DNA of 64,000 bases. Origin: Candidatus Obscuribacterales bacterium (GTDB lineage Bacteria > Cyanobacteriota > Vampirovibrionia > Obscuribacterales > Obscuribacteraceae). Below, in pieces: positions 3,838 to 56,854 of the stretch. Position numbers and translations under genes: made by a program. Under the pieces are notes generated by a model, which worked only from the letters and a program-made list of their open reading frames with translations, was not told where the DNA came from and searched no databases. Position 1 is the stretch's first letter. Each line of letters opens with the position of its first letter. The DNA is taken from positions 672,001-736,000 of the forward strand of contig CBDDIJ010000003.1 of NCBI GenBank assembly GCA_965228855.1, written 5' to 3'.

Positions 3838-4449
3838 ATGACCGAAAGTCCATTAATCAGTCGAAGCATTGACGTTGACTATTCTACGGTGGCGATTGCC
3901 CGAGATGGTCGACGAATTATTATTAGAGCAATCCGTCCAGACGATAAAGTTATTTTTGAAGATGAACTCCGGCATCTCAGTCCGGAATCAAGGTATTTTA
4001 GATTCTTTACACCGAAAACCGAGCTAACTGCAAAGGAATTGAAGTATTTTTCGGAGCTGGATTTTGTCAATCATGTTGGACTGATTGCACTGATCCAGGA
4101 CAATGACACTTTTGTTGCGGCTGGAACAGGACGATACATTGTTTGCCCAGCTAATGGAAATGGACCGAGCGCAGAAGTCGCCTTTGAGGTGAAAGAGGAA
4201 TTTCAAAATCTTGGCATTGCTACTATTTTACTTCGCGAACTGACTTGCATCGCGTCTAAATCCGGCATCAAACAGCTCGTGGCGTTTGTCCTCAACACGA
4301 ATTCTAAGATGCTCTCGGTCTTACGTAAGTTTCACTGGAAGTATCAAAGCCACGGCGGTTCCGCCGGTGTCATGACTCTCAGCAAAGAAGTTAGCGACAG
4401 TGAGTCGGGTGATATCCATACTCCCTCACAAAACCATTCCGAAGGATGA
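3838..4449 (+). CDS. GNAT N-acetyltransferase (Pat/YfiQ GNAT-domain-like)
   Basis: IRAIRPDD...LSPESRYFRFF...AEVAFEV...FQNLGIATILL. Confidence 0.88.
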   Translation: MTESPLISRSIDVDYSTVAIARDGRRIIIRAIRPDDKVIFEDELRHLSPESRYFRFFTPKTELTAKELKYFSELDFVNHVGLIALIQDNDTFVAAGTGRYIVCPANGNGPSAEVAFEVKEEFQNLGIATILLRELTCIASKSGIKQLVAFVLNTNSKMLSVLRKFHWKYQSHGGSAGVMTLSKEVSDSESGDIHTPSQNHSEG

Positions 4450-5213: not shown

Positions 5214-5384
5214 GGTCACTGTTTGGAAGGAAACCTGGTGCCGTATACGGTGCCCGGCTACAAATTGACGAGCAGTTCGACAGATCGTACTGCTCGTTTT
5301 CGTTTCGTTTCCACTTCTAATTAAGCTGACGGGTGTTGTAGCCACCGACGTTTAAACAAGCCTCTCATTAAGTGCGGAGACCCA

Positions 5385-51126: not shown

Positions 51127-52515
51127 ATGACGACGACTCTTAGAGAGAAAACGATAAAGTCTCCCACTCCAGTCAAGGAGCCCAGCCAAATTTCCCGACT
51201 TGTTCGCGGTTTAATCCGGAATATAGTCTGGTGTTTTGGAACATTAATCGTTTCGCTCCTGGTTCTCGAAGTTGCTCTGCGAGCATGTGGTGTGGGCGGC
51301 GAAGAGTATTTGAAGATGGACCCGACGATTGGTTTTACTCACCTGGAGAATAAACCTATTGTCGTCCGCTCCGAGGGCTGGTCTTATGACCCCGCCAACT
51401 CCAGAGGCATTCGCGATTATGAATACTCTGTCACTCCGGCACCGGGTGTGCATCGCGTAGCATTTCTCGGAGACTCGAAAACAGAGTCTATTCAAGTTCC
51501 GCTGAAGGATAATTTCCCTAAAGAGATTGAGCGTCGTTTAAACGCAAATGGTTCCAGCGGTGGTCGGGAAACGGCAATAAATGGCTCGAATGTATCGAAC
51601 GGCCTGGATGGCAAAGTTGAGTGCATCAACTTCGGTATGTCCGGTTATGGGACGTCGCAAGAAGTTCTCCAGTACATGCGTGATGTGCGGCAATACAAGC
51701 CGGAAGTCACGGTCCTTGTTTATCATGTGCTCGATAACGACGAAAATACTGCCCCGGTGCAGCCGGAGACGTTTACGCCTCGTCCTTACTTCAGCGTCAA
51801 CGATCAGGGGGTTTTGAAACCGGACTGGCTTTTTCTTGATGCGTGGTTTTGTTCCGAAAGGGCGGTTTATTTCAAGGCTTGTGATTGGCTGAGAAGAAAC
51901 AGTTATGTGCTGGGTGTTCTCGCGCAGATCGATAAGACGAGTAAAGGGCAAAAATATTACGACCTATATCAGCAAAAAGTGCTGTTACCGATTTACGAAT
52001 CGCTAGCGAACGTTGTTCCTGCTTTTCGATATAAACCGGATGAAGTTGCTATGGCTCAAAGAGCCAGTCTTGCTAAGGAGTTTGAAAAGCCAATACAGAA
52101 TTTCGGTTCTACGTCTGAAGAACAAATTCCAGATCGCCCGCCAGGTTTTCTAGATAAAGACTATAACGTGCTATTGCTTAACCATCGCTTGCACTTCCGC
52201 GTGACCGCGGCGCTGATTCGGAAACTGAATCAGGTGTGCAAAGAGAATGGTTCAAAGTTGGTTGTTGCGACCCTTCCTGCGCCTACTTCACAGATATTCT
52301 ATTTCAAGGAAGTCAACGCTCTTCAGCAAATCTCAAAAGAAGAAGGCTTTGATTTTGTCAATTTGCATGAGGCATTTCCGAAGTCAACCGGCGGCGAATC
52401 GAGTCCACTATTTGTCGGCTTCCACTTCTCTCGCCTTGGACACAAAATCGTTGCTGATGAGTTGACGCCGGTTGTCGAACGAAATCTGAAAAGTAAAAAA
52501 CTGAATCCGCAATAG
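51127..52515 (+). CDS. SGNH hydrolase-like protein (AlgJ/AlgX-like partner)
   Basis: TM, LGDS, NFGMSGY, ND, HFSRLGH. Confidence 0.8.
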   Translation: MTTTLREKTIKSPTPVKEPSQISRLVRGLIRNIVWCFGTLIVSLLVLEVALRACGVGGEEYLKMDPTIGFTHLENKPIVVRSEGWSYDPANSRGIRDYEYSVTPAPGVHRVAFLGDSKTESIQVPLKDNFPKEIERRLNANGSSGGRETAINGSNVSNGLDGKVECINFGMSGYGTSQEVLQYMRDVRQYKPEVTVLVYHVLDNDENTAPVQPETFTPRPYFSVNDQGVLKPDWLFLDAWFCSERAVYFKACDWLRRNSYVLGVLAQIDKTSKGQKYYDLYQQKVLLPIYESLANVVPAFRYKPDEVAMAQRASLAKEFEKPIQNFGSTSEEQIPDRPPGFLDKDYNVLLLNHRLHFRVTAALIRKLNQVCKENGSKLVVATLPAPTSQIFYFKEVNALQQISKEEGFDFVNLHEAFPKSTGGESSPLFVGFHFSRLGHKIVADELTPVVERNLKSKKLNPQ

Positions 52516-52518
52516 TAA

Positions 52519-52600
52519 GGAGCAGACAGGAGTTGAACCTGTAACCCTTGCAGGCAGACGGTTTAGCAAACCGCTTCCTCGACCGTGTCGGACCTGCTCC
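52519..52600 (-). tRNA. tRNA-Ser(GCT)
   Basis: GGAGCAG/CUGCUCC; GCGGU-UUGCUAA-ACCGU; V-arm. Confidence 0.88.
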
Positions 52601-52604
52601 AAAG

Positions 52605-52785
52605 TCGCATCGTCACCAGCCAATCACTAGTATTGAATCTGGTGCTTCTCAGGGAATGGTGACCATGCGGCGTCCGGTGAAGACGCCGCGGGCGAGCAGA
52701 CGATGCGAGCTACTCGCGGTCACCTATATGACGGAGTCTAAGCATTTCCAGCGCACAGGCGGAAGAGGTTTCCGCCTGACCGCGA
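52605..52785 (-). ncRNA. Two adjacent structured RNA domains of unknown class
   Basis: UCGCGGUCA/UGACCGCGA and UCGCAUCGUC/GACGAUGCGA closing stems with internal hairpins. Confidence 0.5.
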
Positions 52786-52827
52786 CAGGTTTGATACCAC
52801 AAATATAAATGCTGACTCGGTCTAAAA

Positions 52828-52902
52828 TGGCTGCACAGGCAGGGGTCGAACCTGCGACAAATCGGTTAACAGCCGATTGTTCTGCCGCTGAACTACTGTG
52901 CA
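52828..52902 (-). tRNA. tRNA-Asn(GTT)
   Basis: AUCGG-CUGUUAA-CCGAU; CCA encoded. Confidence 0.92.
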
Positions 52903-52906
52903 ATAA

Positions 52907-52987
52907 GGAAGCAGAGGGACTCGAACCCCCAAACCTTGACGGCCAACTGTTTTCAAGACAGCGTCCTCATCCAGCCGGGTTGCTTCC
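52907..52987 (-). tRNA. tRNA-Ser(TGA)
   Basis: GCUGU-CUUGAAA-ACAGU; V-arm. Confidence 0.88.
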
Positions 52988-53047
52988 GAGTGATACCGAA
53001 AATGATTTCGGTATCGCCGATAGTGCTTGCGAGCACGCTCGACATAA

Positions 53048-53119
53048 GCCGTTGACAGGAGTTGAACCTGCAACCTACTGTTTACAAGACAGCAGCTCTA
53101 CCAATTGAGCCACAACGGC
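53048..53119 (-). tRNA. tRNA-Thr(TGT)
   Basis: GCUGU-CUUGUAA-ACAGU. Confidence 0.92.
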
Positions 53120-53120
53120 A

Positions 53121-53195
53121 TGGAACCGCATCCAGGATTCGAACCTGGGCGCAAAGGTTTAGAAAACCATCGCTCTTCCGCTGAGCTAATGCGGT
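53121..53195 (-). tRNA. tRNA-Arg(TCT)
   Basis: UUUCUAA loop; CCA encoded. Confidence 0.88.
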
Positions 53196-53196
53196 A

Positions 53197-53290
53197 TGGT
53201 ACCAGTGGTAGGGCTCGAACCTACAACCTTGCGCTAATCGGGCGCTCAACCGAGTATAAATCGGCCGCTCTGCCATTGAGCTACACTGGT
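53197..53290 (-). tRNA. tRNA-Ile(TAT) with 24-nt extra arm
   Basis: GCCGA-UUUAUAC-UCGGU; extra arm GCGC-CCGAUUA-GCGC; ACCA end. Confidence 0.8.
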
Positions 53291-53320
53291 TCGTTTGTGA
53301 ACTAATTTAAGTAGCGAAGA

Positions 53321-53392
53321 TGGAGGCAGTAGGAATCGAACCCACTTAATGCTGGTTAAAAGCCAGATGCATAGCCACTCTGCCATACCTCC
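53321..53392 (-). tRNA. tRNA-Lys(TTT)
   Basis: CUGG-CUUUUAA-CCAG. Confidence 0.88.
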
Positions 53393-53509
53393 TAGCGTTG
53401 ATTCTCATCGACGCTATGCGTTTTGAACTCATATTGGAACCTCCGATGATGGAGCATGACCGTTTTTCAACGACCATGCTCCGAGACGCAAACTTGTTTC
53501 CGAAGTAAT

Positions 53510-53584
53510 TGGGAGCACTGACGAGAATCGAACTCGCATTTGCGGAGTGAAAGTCCACCTTCCTAACCATTAGAAGACAGTGCC
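53510..53584 (-). tRNA. tRNA-Glu(TTC)
   Basis: GUGGA-CUUUCAC-UCCGC; CCA encoded. Confidence 0.88.
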
Positions 53585-53616
53585 GTAGAACCGCTTTTGA
53601 AGCGGAGTTGTAATCA

Positions 53617-53688
53617 ACCCTTGTCAGGACTTGAACCTGAACGCTACTGGATCGGAACCAGTTGCTCTTCCGTTTGAGCTACAAGGGC
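53617..53688 (-). tRNA. tRNA-Arg(CCG)
   Basis: ACUGG-UUCCGAU-CCAGU. Confidence 0.88.
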
Positions 53689-53692
53689 ATGG

Positions 53693-53820
53693 GCCGTACG
53701 AGTTGGAGATACGAGTTTTTTACATCCCCATGTAGCGGGGATGATTGGAGTTGAACCAATTAGATTTGTGTTGGAGACAAATGTTTTACCGTGTGTAAGT
53801 ATCTTCTGTTAGAGTACGGC
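53693..53820 (-). ncRNA. Y-RNA-like RNA 1 (circularly permuted tRNA-Trp cargo)
   Basis: GCCGUAC-UCUAAC...CAAC-UC-GUACGGC handle; anticodon arm (CCA), T arm, loop-closed acceptor stem. Confidence 0.7.
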
Positions 53821-53829
53821 GGAAATTTG

Positions 53830-53898
53830 TTCGTGCAAGTCGTTGATGCGAAGCTAAGCTCGTTCAAAGAGTGTATGCATCAACTGTCGGAGCACGAA
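53830..53898 (-). ncRNA. Y-RNA-like RNA 2 (minimal)
   Basis: UUCGUGC-UCCGAC-A-GUUGAUGC...GCAUCAAC-GAC-UU-GCACGAA. Confidence 0.68.
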
Positions 53899-53901
53899 AC
53901 A

Positions 53902-53988
53902 TGGTCGGCGGGGCACGGATTTGAACCTGCGAAGTCTTGAGACGCGTGGGTTACGGCCACGCTGCTTTGGCCACTTGCATACCCGCCG
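53902..53988 (-). tRNA. tRNA-Tyr(GTA), C1-G72, C33
   Basis: CGGCGGG/CCCGCCG-ACCA; CGUGG-CCGUAAC-CCACG; V-arm; bulged T stem. Confidence 0.82.
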
Positions 53989-54061
53989 GTACTGTTTGCG
54001 TTCTGAATCGGGGCGATACCAGAGTGGTATCACCGTGATACCAGACTGGTGTCATCAATGA

Positions 54062-54132
54062 AGTCCCTTGCAGGAATTGCACCTGCATAAACTGATTTGC
54101 AGTCAGTCACCTTGCTATTCGGACAAAGGGAC
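54062..54132 (-). tRNA. tRNA-Cys(GCA)
   Basis: ACUGA-CUGCAAA-UCAGU; U73. Confidence 0.88.
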
Positions 54133-54133
54133 G

Positions 54134-54207
54134 TGGAGCCTATCATCGGACTCGAACCGATACCCCTAGCATGGCTCGCTAGGATTCTGCCTTTATACTA
54201 GATAGGC
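54134..54207 (-). tRNA. tRNA-Gly(GCC) with atypical anticodon loop
   Basis: CUAGC-GAGCCAU-GCUAG; UCCA end. Confidence 0.75.
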
Positions 54208-54208
54208 G

Positions 54209-54283
54209 TGGTTGCCGCAGAAGGATTTGCACCTACACTTGCTCACTTATCGGGTGAGTACTCTGCTGTTAAGTTATGCGGCA
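54209..54283 (-). tRNA. tRNA-Ile(GAT), C33
   Basis: CUCAC-CCGAUAA-GUGAG; ACCA end. Confidence 0.82.
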
Positions 54284-54284
54284 C

Positions 54285-54369
54285 TGGTGGAGGCAGTAGG
54301 AATCGAACCCACGTTGGTTTTGAAACCTCTGGTTAAGAGCCAGGTGCATAGCCATTCTGCCATGCCTCC
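54285..54369 (-). tRNA. tRNA-Lys(CTT) with variable arm
   Basis: CUGG-CUCUUAA-CCAG; GGUU-UCAA-AACC extra arm; ACCA. Confidence 0.82.
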
Positions 54370-54370
54370 A

Positions 54371-54562
54371 GGACGAGCGACATCGAGAACGGTTTCATGT
54401 TGCACATAGAAACCTCATCGTGCAGTTAGTCAGCTCGTTTCTGTTCTTGCACCACAGATGGTTTCGTTCATAAGACAGTCCCTTAGAACCGTTTTTTGCG
54501 AACCACATCTGGTGCTCGATGTTTTAGACGTCACCCGGCGCCTGATAGCGCCTGCGGTGCTC
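54371..54562 (-). ncRNA. Structured RNA of unknown class
   Basis: AACAUCGAG/CUCGAUGUC closing stem, GCACCAGAUG/CAUCUGUGGUGC arm. Confidence 0.5.
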
Positions 54563-54567
54563 TTAAT

Positions 54568-54642
54568 TGGAACCCTTGTCAGGATTCGAACCTGAAGCCT
54601 ACTGGTTCGTAGCCAGTTGCTCTTCCTTTAAGCTACAAGGGC
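54568..54642 (-). tRNA. tRNA-Arg(ACG)
   Basis: ACUGG-CUACGAA-CCAGU; CCA encoded. Confidence 0.92.
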
Positions 54643-54683
54643 GCATGCCTGCTTATGGTTATGACACCGCAAGTAGGCGGTCA

Positions 54684-54899
54684 ACCGTGCAAGTTGAAGT
54701 TACGGATCATCGCGTTTTACCGTTGCTCGAAATCTAGCCCAGTCCGCACTTACGCGTTGTTTAAATGATGGCTGCTTAAAGCCTACATCCTGGGTTTCTG
54801 ACGACTCCTCACAATCTCATTGCCATTTGAAACGACGGTTGGCTTAGCCAACTAGCCTCCTCTCGTACTGCTTGTATGTATCTTGGGTTGGGGCACGGT
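54684..54899 (-). ncRNA. Y-RNA-like RNA 3 (23S sarcin-ricin loop plus H43/H44 mimic)
   Basis: ACCGUGC-CCCAAC...CAAC-UU-GCACGGU handle; AGUACGAGAGGA; CCAGGAUGUAGGCUUUAAGCAGCCAUCAUUUAAACAACGCGUAAGUGCGGACUGG. Confidence 0.8.
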
Positions 54900-54903
54900 C
54901 GCT

Positions 54904-54973
54904 TGCTCACCATCGGAATCGAACCGATTTCTCCATCCGGCGAGATGGATTTCTGCCATTGAATTAGGCGAGC
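54904..54973 (-). tRNA. tRNA-like gene, anticodon undetermined (GCC or CGC)
   Basis: GCUCGCC/GGUGAGC; intact T arm; anticodon loop of 6 or 8 nt. Confidence 0.6.
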
Positions 54974-54977
54974 ACAT

Positions 54978-55110
54978 AAACCGTACGAGTCGCGCTTGCA
55001 GGTGGGGCTTTACATTTCGCAGCCGTGAATTCCAGTTCCGGCAAGACACCCACAGTTACGTTTGTTTATTTGTTTGTGGATTGTAAGCAATCGCTGTTGG
55101 AGTACGGTTT
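54978..55110 (-). ncRNA. Y-RNA-like RNA 4 (A/C-rich strand plus GUGGG/CCCAC domain)
   Basis: AAACCGUAC-UCCAAC...CGAC-UC-GUACGGUUU handle. Confidence 0.68.
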
Positions 55111-55114
55111 TATA

Positions 55115-55185
55115 TTGCCGCAGCAGGTCTTGCACCTGCACGTGTCGGTTTATTCAACAAACACTCTGCGTTGATTTACACGGCA
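55115..55185 (-). pseudogene. Degenerate tRNA, probably Ile(AAT), related to the Ile(GAT) gene
   Basis: UGCCGUG/UGCGGCA; GCAGG-UGCAAGA-CCUGC; weak D and anticodon stems. Confidence 0.5.
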
Positions 55186-55186
55186 T

Positions 55187-55261
55187 TGGTACCCGATGAA
55201 GGACTTGAACCTTCAACCCGCTCTTTGTAAGAGAGACGCTCTACCATTGAGCTAACCGGGT
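55187..55261 (-). tRNA. tRNA-Val(TAC)
   Basis: CUCU-CUUACAA-AGAG; ACCA. Confidence 0.92.
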
Positions 55262-55262
55262 A

Positions 55263-55339
55263 TGGTGCTTAGGGTCGGGGTCGAACCAACAACGCGCAGG
55301 GCTTCAACCTGCCGCTCTACCACTTGGAGCTACCTAAGC
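55263..55339 (-). tRNA. tRNA-Phe(GAA)
   Basis: GCAGG-UUGAAGC-CCUGC; ACCA. Confidence 0.9.
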
Positions 55340-55340
55340 A

Positions 55341-55417
55341 TGGTGCTTCTGGAAGGAGTCGAACCTTCAGACTTCTGTTTTTGAAACAGATGCATGTACC
55401 GATTCTGCTACAGAAGC
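55341..55417 (-). tRNA. tRNA-Leu(CAA) without variable arm
   Basis: UCUGU-UUCAAAA-ACAGA; 5-nt variable loop; ACCA. Confidence 0.85.
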
Positions 55418-55422
55418 ATGTG

Positions 55423-55540
55423 GCCGTACGAGTCGAGGTGCAGTGTAGTTCACGGAGGAATCGAACCTCCAACTTCTGATTAATAGTCAGATACTCTTAC
55501 CGTTTGAGTTAGTGTGTATGCACGTCTGTGTGAGTACGGC
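55423..55540 (-). ncRNA. Y-RNA-like RNA 5 (tRNA-Asn(AUU)-like cargo)
   Basis: GCCGUAC-UCACAC...CGAC-UC-GUACGGC handle enclosing D, anticodon (UCUGA-CUAUUAA-UCAGA) and T arms. Confidence 0.72.
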
Positions 55541-55547
55541 GCAGTTA

Positions 55548-55620
55548 TGGAGACGATCGGAGTTGAACCGACAACCTTCTCGTTGCAGGCGAGGTGCTCT
55601 ACCAGTTGAGCTAAGTCCCC
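55548..55620 (-). tRNA. tRNA-Ala(TGC), C33
   Basis: G3:U70; CUCG-CCUGCAA-CGAG. Confidence 0.88.
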
Positions 55621-55624
55621 AGGT

Positions 55625-55728
55625 GGAGCCGATCTTGGCGTTTCGAGATTGCGATGAAGACCCTCCGAGTTTGCGCCGGCAATGCGCTCGATCTTCGCAG
55701 AGAAAAAATCGTCGAAACAATCGGCTCC
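55625..55728 (-). ncRNA. Long irregular hairpin RNA
   Basis: GGAGCCGAU/AUCGGCUCC, GUUUCGA/UCGAAAC and further nested stems. Confidence 0.5.
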
Positions 55729-55734
55729 TGGTAC

Positions 55735-55810
55735 TGGTCGCAGAGACCGGATTCGAACCGGTAATTTACAGGTTATGAGCCTGCCGTGTTAACCGTTACA
55801 CTACTCTGCT
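55735..55810 (-). tRNA. tRNA-Met(CAT), 1-72 mismatch (initiator-like)
   Basis: GCAGG-CUCAUAA-CCUGU; A1xG72; ACCA. Confidence 0.85.
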
Positions 55811-55823
55811 AAATTTGAACATT

Positions 55824-55897
55824 TGCTTCTGGAAGGATTCGAACCTTCAGACCTCCGGGTTTAAGTCGGATGCATGTGCCGATTCTGCTACAGAAGC
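55824..55897 (-). tRNA. tRNA-Leu(TAA) without variable arm
   Basis: CUUAAAC loop; near-copy of the Leu(CAA) body. Confidence 0.82.
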
Positions 55898-55898
55898 G

Positions 55899-55973
55899 TG
55901 GCGCATCCCCTAGGATTTGAACCCAGATCGAACGAGTTTGGAGCTCGTCATGTTGCCGTTACACCAGGGATAC
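55899..55973 (-). tRNA. tRNA-Trp(CCA)
   Basis: ACGAG-CUCCAAA-CUCGU; GCCA end. Confidence 0.92.
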
Positions 55974-55978
55974 GGGTT

Positions 55979-56134
55979 GAGTGAGTTAAGCACGAGCCTT
56001 CGGTCTGGGTTATGTGAACTGCAACTGAATCTGATTTTCAGCTGCTGGAACCATTTGCTATCACGATTCCGTCGGCTCCGTGTTGGGTCACGACGCCTGC
56101 TCGATCACGAACCAAAACTCGTGCTCAACCACTC
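55979..56134 (-). ncRNA. Multibranch structured RNA of unknown class
   Basis: GAGUGGUUGAGCACGAG/CUCGUGCUUAACUCACUC closing stem plus three internal hairpins. Confidence 0.55.
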
Positions 56135-56270
56135 GAATGTTTTTTTGCGGATTCAATTTTCAGTGTGCGATTCGTCGAGGAGTCACGCAAGAGCGCAGAG
56201 AAACAGGCCTGTTCACTACTGCGAAGGCGCTTCAAGACTATTTTTTTGTTCGCGAAAATCCAGAACTAAT

Positions 56271-56303
56271 AACAAAAAAGCCTGGGCTTTTCGACCCAGG
56301 CTT
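56271..56303 (-). terminator. Attenuator terminator 5' of the RNA array
   Basis: AAGCCUGGGU-CGAAAA-GCCCAGGCUU-UUUUGUU. Confidence 0.85.
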
Positions 56304-56325
56304 GCGAATGAGAAACGACTCTACG

Positions 56326-56454
56326 TCAGATCACACCTGGGCTATATTTATTCGTCGCGCCTGCTGTCCACAGTTCGCGACCGAGTATCTCGGCCGGTTT
56401 CCCGACGGACATGCGATTCTCGCAACTTAAATGTCTATATGATCTAAACGACAT
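56326..56454 (-). CDS. 42-aa leader peptide of the RNA array
   Basis: GGAGA RBS; last codons contain AGCCCAGG, complementary to the terminator 5' strand. Confidence 0.7.
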   Translation of the reverse strand: MSFRSYRHLSCENRMSVGKPAEILGRELWTAGATNKYSPGVI

Positions 56455-56521
56455 TTCGTGTTTCTCCATTCGCCGCCGAATTCGATACTTAATCGAATCG
56501 ATTTTTCGGTCGACACTAACA

Positions 56522-56550
56522 ATCCTACCATGCACCTTCCGAAATTACAC
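56522..56550 (-). promoter_or_regulatory. Candidate promoter for leader plus array
   Basis: GTGTAA-17 nt-TAGGAT with TG extension. Confidence 0.35.
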
Positions 56551-56854
56551 GGGGAAGTTTCAACTTTTAATCTTTGATTCGCGCTTACCATGCGGTTTTC
56601 CGCATATAAGAGTAAAAGAGTAATAAATAAACATGGAGAAGATGAAGATGTGGTGCGTTCTTAACGCTCACCAGATCCTCGGTCATGATTAAGTGCTTGT
56701 AGCACAGTCTCGTGTTTAGGTAATCAAAACATGTAATCGCTGAGCTTCTATCATGAACTTTAGAGGCCTTACTTTAATCAAAAGCCTATAGATCAATAGA
56801 TCCACATTTCAAGCTATTGAGATAACATAGAAGAAGGTAAATATTGGAGACGCT

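Follow-up and report, generated by a model that had tools for sequence, protein, structure and literature searches.

We report that an array of tRNA genes in a Candidatus Obscuribacterales bacterium is, with a probability of about 0.8, gated by a ribosome-mediated transcription attenuator whose short leader open reading frame (ORF) samples the amino acids served by the array. The anatomy of this leader, its conservation in relatives and the match between its content and that of the array are seen directly in the sequences. That attenuation as such operates before the cellular tRNA array across the family is very likely, true sensing of individual tRNAs by the leader is fairly likely, and the spare tRNAs are probably made only when ribosomes falter. 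The reasons for which bacteria maintain long 'cryptic' tRNA arrays, and the signals that activate them, are an open question for which the only worked-out case, that of Anabaena, offers a repressor; the leader described here would give a second, RNA-only answer. Control by a leader peptide is known for amino-acid synthesis genes; the literature searched, which included few subscription papers, yielded no such control of tRNA genes.

Organization of the locus

The elements of the locus in the window (the whole stretch of 64,000 nt that was analysed) are the following.

52518..55973, minus strand: tRNA array with some 22 intact genes that serve 16 amino acids
56153..56168, minus strand: boxA-like element of the rRNA-operon type, past the terminator (in 16 of 19 loci, about 123-210 nt past it)
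56270..56303, minus strand: intrinsic terminator, stem 56303-56278 (10 pairs) and U tract, 22 nt past the ORF stop
56304..56325, minus strand: spacer, which extends the antiterminator hairpin or supplies the 3' strand of helix P1 (56316-56304)
56326..56454, minus strand: leader ORF, 42 codons, UGA stop
56336..56343, minus strand: antiterminator strand, a copy of the terminator 3' arm within the final ORF codons
56460..56473, minus strand: ribosome-binding site (RBS) and 5' strand of helix P1 (anti-antiterminator)
56467-56463, minus strand: RBS GGAGA, 8 nt 5' of the ATG
56522..56530, minus strand: extended -10 promoter-like element, predicted start near 56515
56590..56605, no strand assigned: palindrome 5' of the promoter, putative factor-binding site

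The initial annotation had described an intrinsic terminator 5' of the array, a 42-codon ORF with a GGAGA RBS that ends about 22 nt before it, and a copy of the terminator 3' strand at 56336-56343 in the final codons; each was recovered at these positions, and translation of the ORF gives the same 42 residues. The leader region folds more stably than all 200 of its shuffles (z -4.1) and matches nothing in Pfam or Rfam. A generic terminator scan gave 8 terminator-like sites against 6.9 ± 2.7 in shuffles, and a count so near that of the shuffles proves nothing by itself; the evidence for the terminator comes from its conservation. The boxA-like element, which we take to be the boxA of rRNA antitermination, also precedes the 23S gene that follows Ile and Ala tRNAs on contig C5 of the same genome, and its place past the terminator is fitting for a long untranslated transcript. 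Between this element and the first tRNA lies a long hairpin (55978-56135, minus strand), possibly a processing stem; its sequence differs among relatives, yet by eye it seems to be present in them.

An extended -10-like element occurs in all 19 terminator-bearing loci, 36-96 nt upstream of the ATG, and the one at 56522..56530 was missed by a generic sigma-70 scan. In the aligned promoter regions, the right half of the palindrome and a short motif about 20 nt downstream of it (56567-56572) recur in most relatives; the palindrome has 9 loose matches genome-wide, with no other seen at a tRNA promoter. Such a conserved upstream motif could mean that the array is controlled at its promoter by a DNA-binding factor, acting on the palindrome or in the manner of the TrcR repressor, with the leader letting through a fixed fraction of transcripts, and the available text of PMC10272220 does describe repression of the Anabaena array at its promoter. 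We nevertheless hold this to be very improbable as the main control, since tandem direct repeats of the TrcR type over the -10 element or start site were not seen by eye in the aligned promoters, and since a constant leak would require no particular stop position and no correspondence between leader and array content. Besides leader-mediated attenuation, a second, promoter-level layer of control may exist.

Conservation of the leader across relatives

Twenty-one loci were examined first, 19 of them with the terminator; the other two are one cut at the terminator (G021) and one array of another kind (G031), which has no match to the leader. All 19 carry an ORF of 33-43 codons whose 3' end overlaps the antiterminator copy, and the RBS is clear in 18 of them (weak in G111). 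Conservation in relatives was a check named by the initial annotation, and the ORF is present in 37 of 37 rows. These 37 leaders (36 different, with ORFs of 33-47 codons) all end at UGA just past the antiterminator, a stop codon used by 1028 of the 3323 long ORFs of this genome (31%); the RBS is weak in five of the 37 rows (G111 and four of ten held-out loci) and cut off in L199. In the 27 rows measured, 8-13 nt separate the start of the antiterminator from the stop that follows it, and all three reading frames are used. The leader peptides have no conserved sequence and their C-terminal frame varies. Since the peptide is variable and read in three frames, with the stop position and UGA fixed, it is the position of translation that is kept and not its product. 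A conserved functional peptide was rejected as a candidate for the same lack of conservation and for the absence of a Pfam match.

The ORF was also found in the loci that further searches gave. A metagenome pattern built from the terminator and boxA only, with no leader feature, gave ten matches, one of them false; the other nine (seven different) all carry the ORF, which in one of them starts at the contig edge. A covariance model matched strongly in 29 of the 104 family genomes, many of which are incomplete, and all ten new strong matches carry the ORF. As a control, 119 pattern matches listed from a search across all bacteria were screened: the ORF is present in 10 of the 10 with at least three tRNAs downstream, and of the other 109 listed, four have it and are family loci with short flanks, leaving 0 of 105 unrelated look-alikes.

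Among the named records listed, the array-bearing matches to the switch are assigned to Obscuribacterales, Melainabacteria or similar groups, and one to Chloroflexota. The latter (L102) is nearly identical in leader and array to G012, which points to a binning error or a transfer. Searches of wider range require the same terminator sequence, so that diverged versions would escape them: 400 sampled genomes of the phylum gave 0 true loci (two other genomes matched, both without an array), 150 genomes of the class gave strong model matches only in this family, and 0 of 7 viral pattern matches were of this leader type. No plasmid covers the region. The genome itself holds a single pattern match and a single covariance-model match, and hence no regulon.

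The strong structure of the leader RNA (z -4.1) and its appearance alone in two RNA libraries would also suit an independent unit, either a small gene or a structured RNA, that ends at its own terminator, with the array transcribed from a separate promoter downstream, and at locus L200 the leader precedes a gene for a secreted protein instead of tRNAs. This is most improbable, as neither the peptide sequence nor its C-terminal frame is conserved, Pfam and Rfam give no match, a generic scan found no promoter-like site on the array strand between the terminator and the first tRNA, and the terminator copy is invariant. In L200 (1-1192), the gene that follows the leader, terminator and boxA, all of the G013 type, encodes 261 aa and matches PEP-CTERM weakly (E 0.024), and the available 1 kb contains no tRNA; either the array was lost or the leader was reused.

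Modelled folding of the proposed switch and helix P1

In the folding model, the transcript was cut just after the terminator 5' arm and a ribosome footprint of 31 nt was moved along the ORF. With the ribosome on the first codons the antiterminator was predicted in 19 of 19 loci, and with the ribosome on the last 8-9 codons it was abolished; stalls in these last codons would go unsensed, as the ribosome then sits on the antiterminator itself. The range of stall positions predicted to turn the array on was broad in 13 of the 19 loci, intermediate in one and narrow in five, this locus and four others, in which it is limited to the first 7-13 codons. At this locus antitermination was predicted only for stalls in codons 1-7, since P1 re-forms in the model once a stall lies past codon 7. 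The terminator and the antiterminator, the latter overlapping the ORF, are mutually exclusive by folding and by invariance. All displayed folds of the full-length RNA favour the terminator, and the switch must therefore be kinetic. Across 21 sequences, 96.8% of the cells of the antiterminator strand and the terminator 5' arm are paired; the core is invariant, so that there is no compensatory change and covariation is uninformative. The extension of the antiterminator beats spacer shuffles (P ≤ 0.05) in 11 of 27 rows and fails to do so at this locus (P 0.55).

P1, overlooked by the initial annotation, is in this genome a helix of 13 pairs between the RBS and the spacer. The cognate duplex of this locus is calculated at -24.4 kcal/mol versus -14.1 kcal/mol for shuffled spacers and beats 24 of 24 spacers from other lineages; P1 is better than all other-lineage spacers in G000, G007, G012, G029, G067 and G068. 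Judged from sequence, P1 thus appears real in several lineages with large arrays, and it is unsupported in the small-array clade. In the model, P1 would keep the switch off without initiation and would hide the RBS in the terminated RNA, and complete failure of initiation is predicted to keep the array off at this locus. Equilibrium folding is silent on whether P1 closes around a stalled ribosome or is blocked by a queued one. The earlier claim that stalling from loss of almost any tRNA switches the array on is thus not fully supported here, the last 8-9 codons being insensible and P1 being predicted to re-form after codon 7.

Leader content and array content

ARAGORN called 21 array genes in 3.5 kb and 74 tRNA genes in the genome, the rest mostly dispersed; two 'Cys' calls were read as Val and Ala from their loops, and one Ser and one Ile tRNA of the array were detected only at a lower threshold. 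At that threshold, the array serves 16 amino acids and has no tRNA for Asp, Gln, His or Pro. It is long, same-strand, non-periodic and supernumerary to the housekeeping set, as L-arrays are.

The leader at this locus uses 34 distinct codons among 41, with no codon run, and 18 amino acids, all of them already within codons 1-33; AGA occurs twice, and TTA, ATA, TCA and ACA are present. These counts agree with the initial annotation, as does the tRNA survey with its statement that the two residues missing from the leader, Asp and Gln, have no array tRNA and that the array lacks those for His and Pro as well. The 34 distinct codons compare with 27.3 ± 3.0 in the genome's own long ORFs (p 0.007) and with 29.8 ± 2.0 in stop-free dinucleotide shuffles (p 0.03), and codons 2-33 are distinct in 29 of 32 cases versus 23 and 24 triplets in the two other frames. 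The proposed excess over shuffles was found for codons and is absent for amino acids: 18 in 42 codons is within chance (p 0.16 against the long ORFs, 0.36 against dinucleotide shuffles). Taken alone, this locus shows a modest codon-sampling signal. The near-absence of family-box U-ending codons (7 of 702) was set aside because depletion of the CU dinucleotide extends to every codon position (0.56, 0.12 and 0.45).

Across lineages the codon-sampling signal is strong. A hand count, made without a shuffle null on the 27 loci with complete arrays, 12 of which belong to one clade of the leader tree, found 4 of 338 array-served amino acids missing from the leader versus 82 of 202 non-served ones; it drops ten of the 37 rows (seven truncated or unclear, one masked, one without array, one duplicate). 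The residues absent from leaders are often common ones (Glu, Leu, Asp), and the rare Trp and Cys are kept. Glu stands in the sensing range of 11 of 11 loci with a Glu tRNA versus 0 of 16 without, and Asp in 3 of 3 loci with an Asp tRNA (and in 5 of 5 truncated arrays) versus 4 of 24 without. In G013, the Trp tRNA and the leader Trp are both absent; in G123/G124, the Thr tRNA is absent and so is Thr from the sensing range. Mismatches exist: although the tRNAs are present, the leaders of G067 and L198 (as well as that of the truncated G029) lack Trp and those of G123/G124 lack Phe, and leaders hold many amino acids that their arrays lack, notably in G123/G124.

Within the sensing range, individual leaders are extreme in their diversity. 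The 26 codons of L203 cover all 20 amino acids (0 of 5000 shuffles), G012 has 20 in 34 codons (3 of 5000), G015 and L201 each have 19 in 26 codons (6 and 19 of 5000), and L199 has 35 distinct codons among 37 (1 of 5000). A comparison of L201 with L203 finds Cys, Tyr, His, Asn, Val and Arg each at another position, with the inventory maintained. In eight lineages with large or Asp/Pro-bearing arrays, the coding frame exceeds the other frames by 4.0 amino acids on average; in seven small-array loci the difference from the other two frames is -0.1, and the leaders of small arrays (7-13 tRNAs) have no excess diversity. Array size and leader diversity correlate (Spearman rho 0.62 and 0.83, n 18), but the rows are related to each other and the correlation does not count as a test.

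The attenuator might instead be a general sensor of ribosome inhibition that responds to stalls at or near the start codon, as leaders of antibiotic-resistance genes do, its content being incidental or weakly tuned. The restriction to codons 1-7 at this locus, the overlap of P1 with the RBS and the chance-level number of amino acids here would agree with this, as would the 100-1000-fold induction of the Anabaena array by ribosome-targeting antibiotics, described in the available part of PMC8421152. We consider it unlikely, since it leaves unexplained the leaders with 19-20 amino acids in 26 codons, whose residues move among G015, L201 and L203, the broad range in 13 of 19 loci, and the way in which leaders have lost Glu, Leu, Trp or Thr where the array has no tRNA for them.

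Proposed mechanism

The reading of the leader as an attenuator, put forward in the initial annotation, stands in that conservation, controls and modelled folds agree with full translation turning the array off and stalling turning it on, and it gains from the hand count, in which leader content follows the array. We infer translation of the leader, switching and the sensed signal as follows. RNA polymerase would start near 56515 with a ribosome translating the leader behind it. A ribosome that reaches the UGA would cover the antiterminator strand and part of the spacer, so that the terminator folds, transcription ends near 56270 and the array stays off. If the ribosome slows or stalls earlier, the free antiterminator strand would capture the terminator 5' arm, and the polymerase would read through, pass the rRNA-type boxA and transcribe the array. 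With no ribosome loaded, P1 would form and, at this locus, the terminator would win. Stalls past codon 7 at this locus would count only if a trailing ribosome on the RBS, or steric hindrance, blocks P1.

The leader would thus serve as a test text and not as a functional peptide. Since it keeps nearly every array-served amino acid, shortage of or damage to any of the corresponding tRNAs, or a ribosome-targeting drug, could trip it. More specifically, the leader is somewhat likely to be a pan-tRNA sensor that co-evolves with the array, keeping codons for those tRNAs that can be resupplied and letting the others go, so that the backup set would be turned on whenever any single host tRNA is lost, uncharged or cleaved by a nuclease. 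If so, it would provide cellular feedback on tRNA supply without a protein regulator and independent of the cyanobacterial TrcR route. The logic would be readable, in that the text of the leader states which shortages induce; attenuation would be extended from a sensor of one amino acid to a general monitor of decoding, and the leader might find use as a portable sensor that reports damaged tRNAs or stressed ribosomes.

Comparison with known systems

Amino-acid operon attenuators include trpL, hisL and pheL and the multivalent thrL and ilvL, and in trp and his, pairing hides the binding site of the leader. The tRNA-array leader resembles them in its RBS, its short ORF overlapping alternative helices, its intrinsic terminator and the predicted read-through upon stalling. 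Whereas they repeat one to three control codons in runs and act on genes for biosynthetic enzymes, the tRNA-array leader avoids repeats, spreads up to 20 amino acids over 33-47 codons and targets non-coding tRNA genes, with a boxA past the terminator. At this locus there is no control-codon run, and a tRNA array instead of biosynthetic genes lies downstream, which sets it apart from the trp/his/thr type. T-boxes resemble the proposed switch in their tRNA-status-dependent antitermination in a 5' leader, but each recognizes a single uncharged tRNA by direct binding and works without translation, and the Rfam T-box models have no match in 52400-56700 at E ≤ 1.

Upstream ORFs that sense translation stress through stalls have been described, and the nearest general ones are two. 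According to the available parts of the reports, rli80-hflXr of Listeria has a 14-codon ORF with an RLR motif and terminator, antiterminator and anti-antiterminator states (PMC6310831), and toiL-topAI of E. coli is induced by stalls at several positions and acts through repression of translation and Rho (PMC12121999). The tRNA-array leader is like them in its proposed sensing, but those parts describe neither control of tRNA genes nor content matched to the product.

Biologically, the closest parallel is the trn operon of Anabaena PCC 7120, which in the available text of PMC8421152 and PMC10272220 is an L-array under the repressor TrcR. It too is long, coexists with a complete housekeeping set and stays silent as long as translation is unimpaired, but it is controlled through direct repeats that lie across the -10 box. 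The string 'attenuat' occurs 0 times in the main texts of both papers, and the available part of PMC2965389 names no attenuated tRNA array. A Nostoc plasmid array has a boxA-like motif 5' of it, tandem repeats and an upstream spacer of about 200 nt, and gave no significant match to the leader model.

Transcript traces

Four of 15 sequencing runs were compared, at contig level only, and gaps in their coverage carry no weight. An activated-sludge RNA run holds a contig of 189 nt (56269-56456, 1 difference) that ends at the U tract, together with pieces of a relative's array; a biofilm RNA run holds a contig covering 56337-56506 (2 differences). The two leader RNA contigs end at different places. 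A soil RNA run has two pieces of depth 2 in the array and none in the leader, and a run that is probably DNA continues across the terminator. These traces hint weakly that the leader is made as a short RNA.

Other features of the array and related loci

A segment inside the array (54717-54816, minus strand) resembles 23S rRNA, matching model positions 1071-1170 above the gathering score, presumably near the GTPase-associated centre, and L064 has a 23S-rRNA-like segment as well (5282-5367, minus strand). This segment may imitate rRNA or act as a decoy, induced together with the tRNAs. A tRNA-like gene (55447-55519, minus strand) keeps the same array position with an anticodon loop that differs in each relative, and could be a decoy or a tRNA that is drifting; further tRNA-like pieces, also degenerate, are located near 55115-55185 and 54903-54974. 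The Ile tRNA at 53197-53290 (minus strand) reads ATA directly; it is about 94 nt in length, has a long variable arm and is conserved in large arrays.

Elsewhere in the genome, Ile and Ala tRNAs lie 5' of the 23S gene on contig C5 (about 1059956-1060700), with no 16S gene directly upstream in the stretch examined, and a small cluster on C3 (1529761-1530653) encodes Gln, Gln, Leu, His and Asp tRNAs, mostly of kinds that the array lacks. In two relatives (L251 and L252, from G123 and G124), a protein-coding gene of roughly 1 kb stands between the Ser tRNA and the Gln/Glu tRNAs. In L260 of G126, short aromatic-rich ORFs with terminators at 4064-4129 and about 4200-4260 (both minus strand) precede genes for DAHP synthase and chorismate mutase-prephenate dehydrogenase, and one of them shares the antiterminator/terminator core. 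This would be a classical attenuator within the same family and possibly a relative of the tRNA-array switch.
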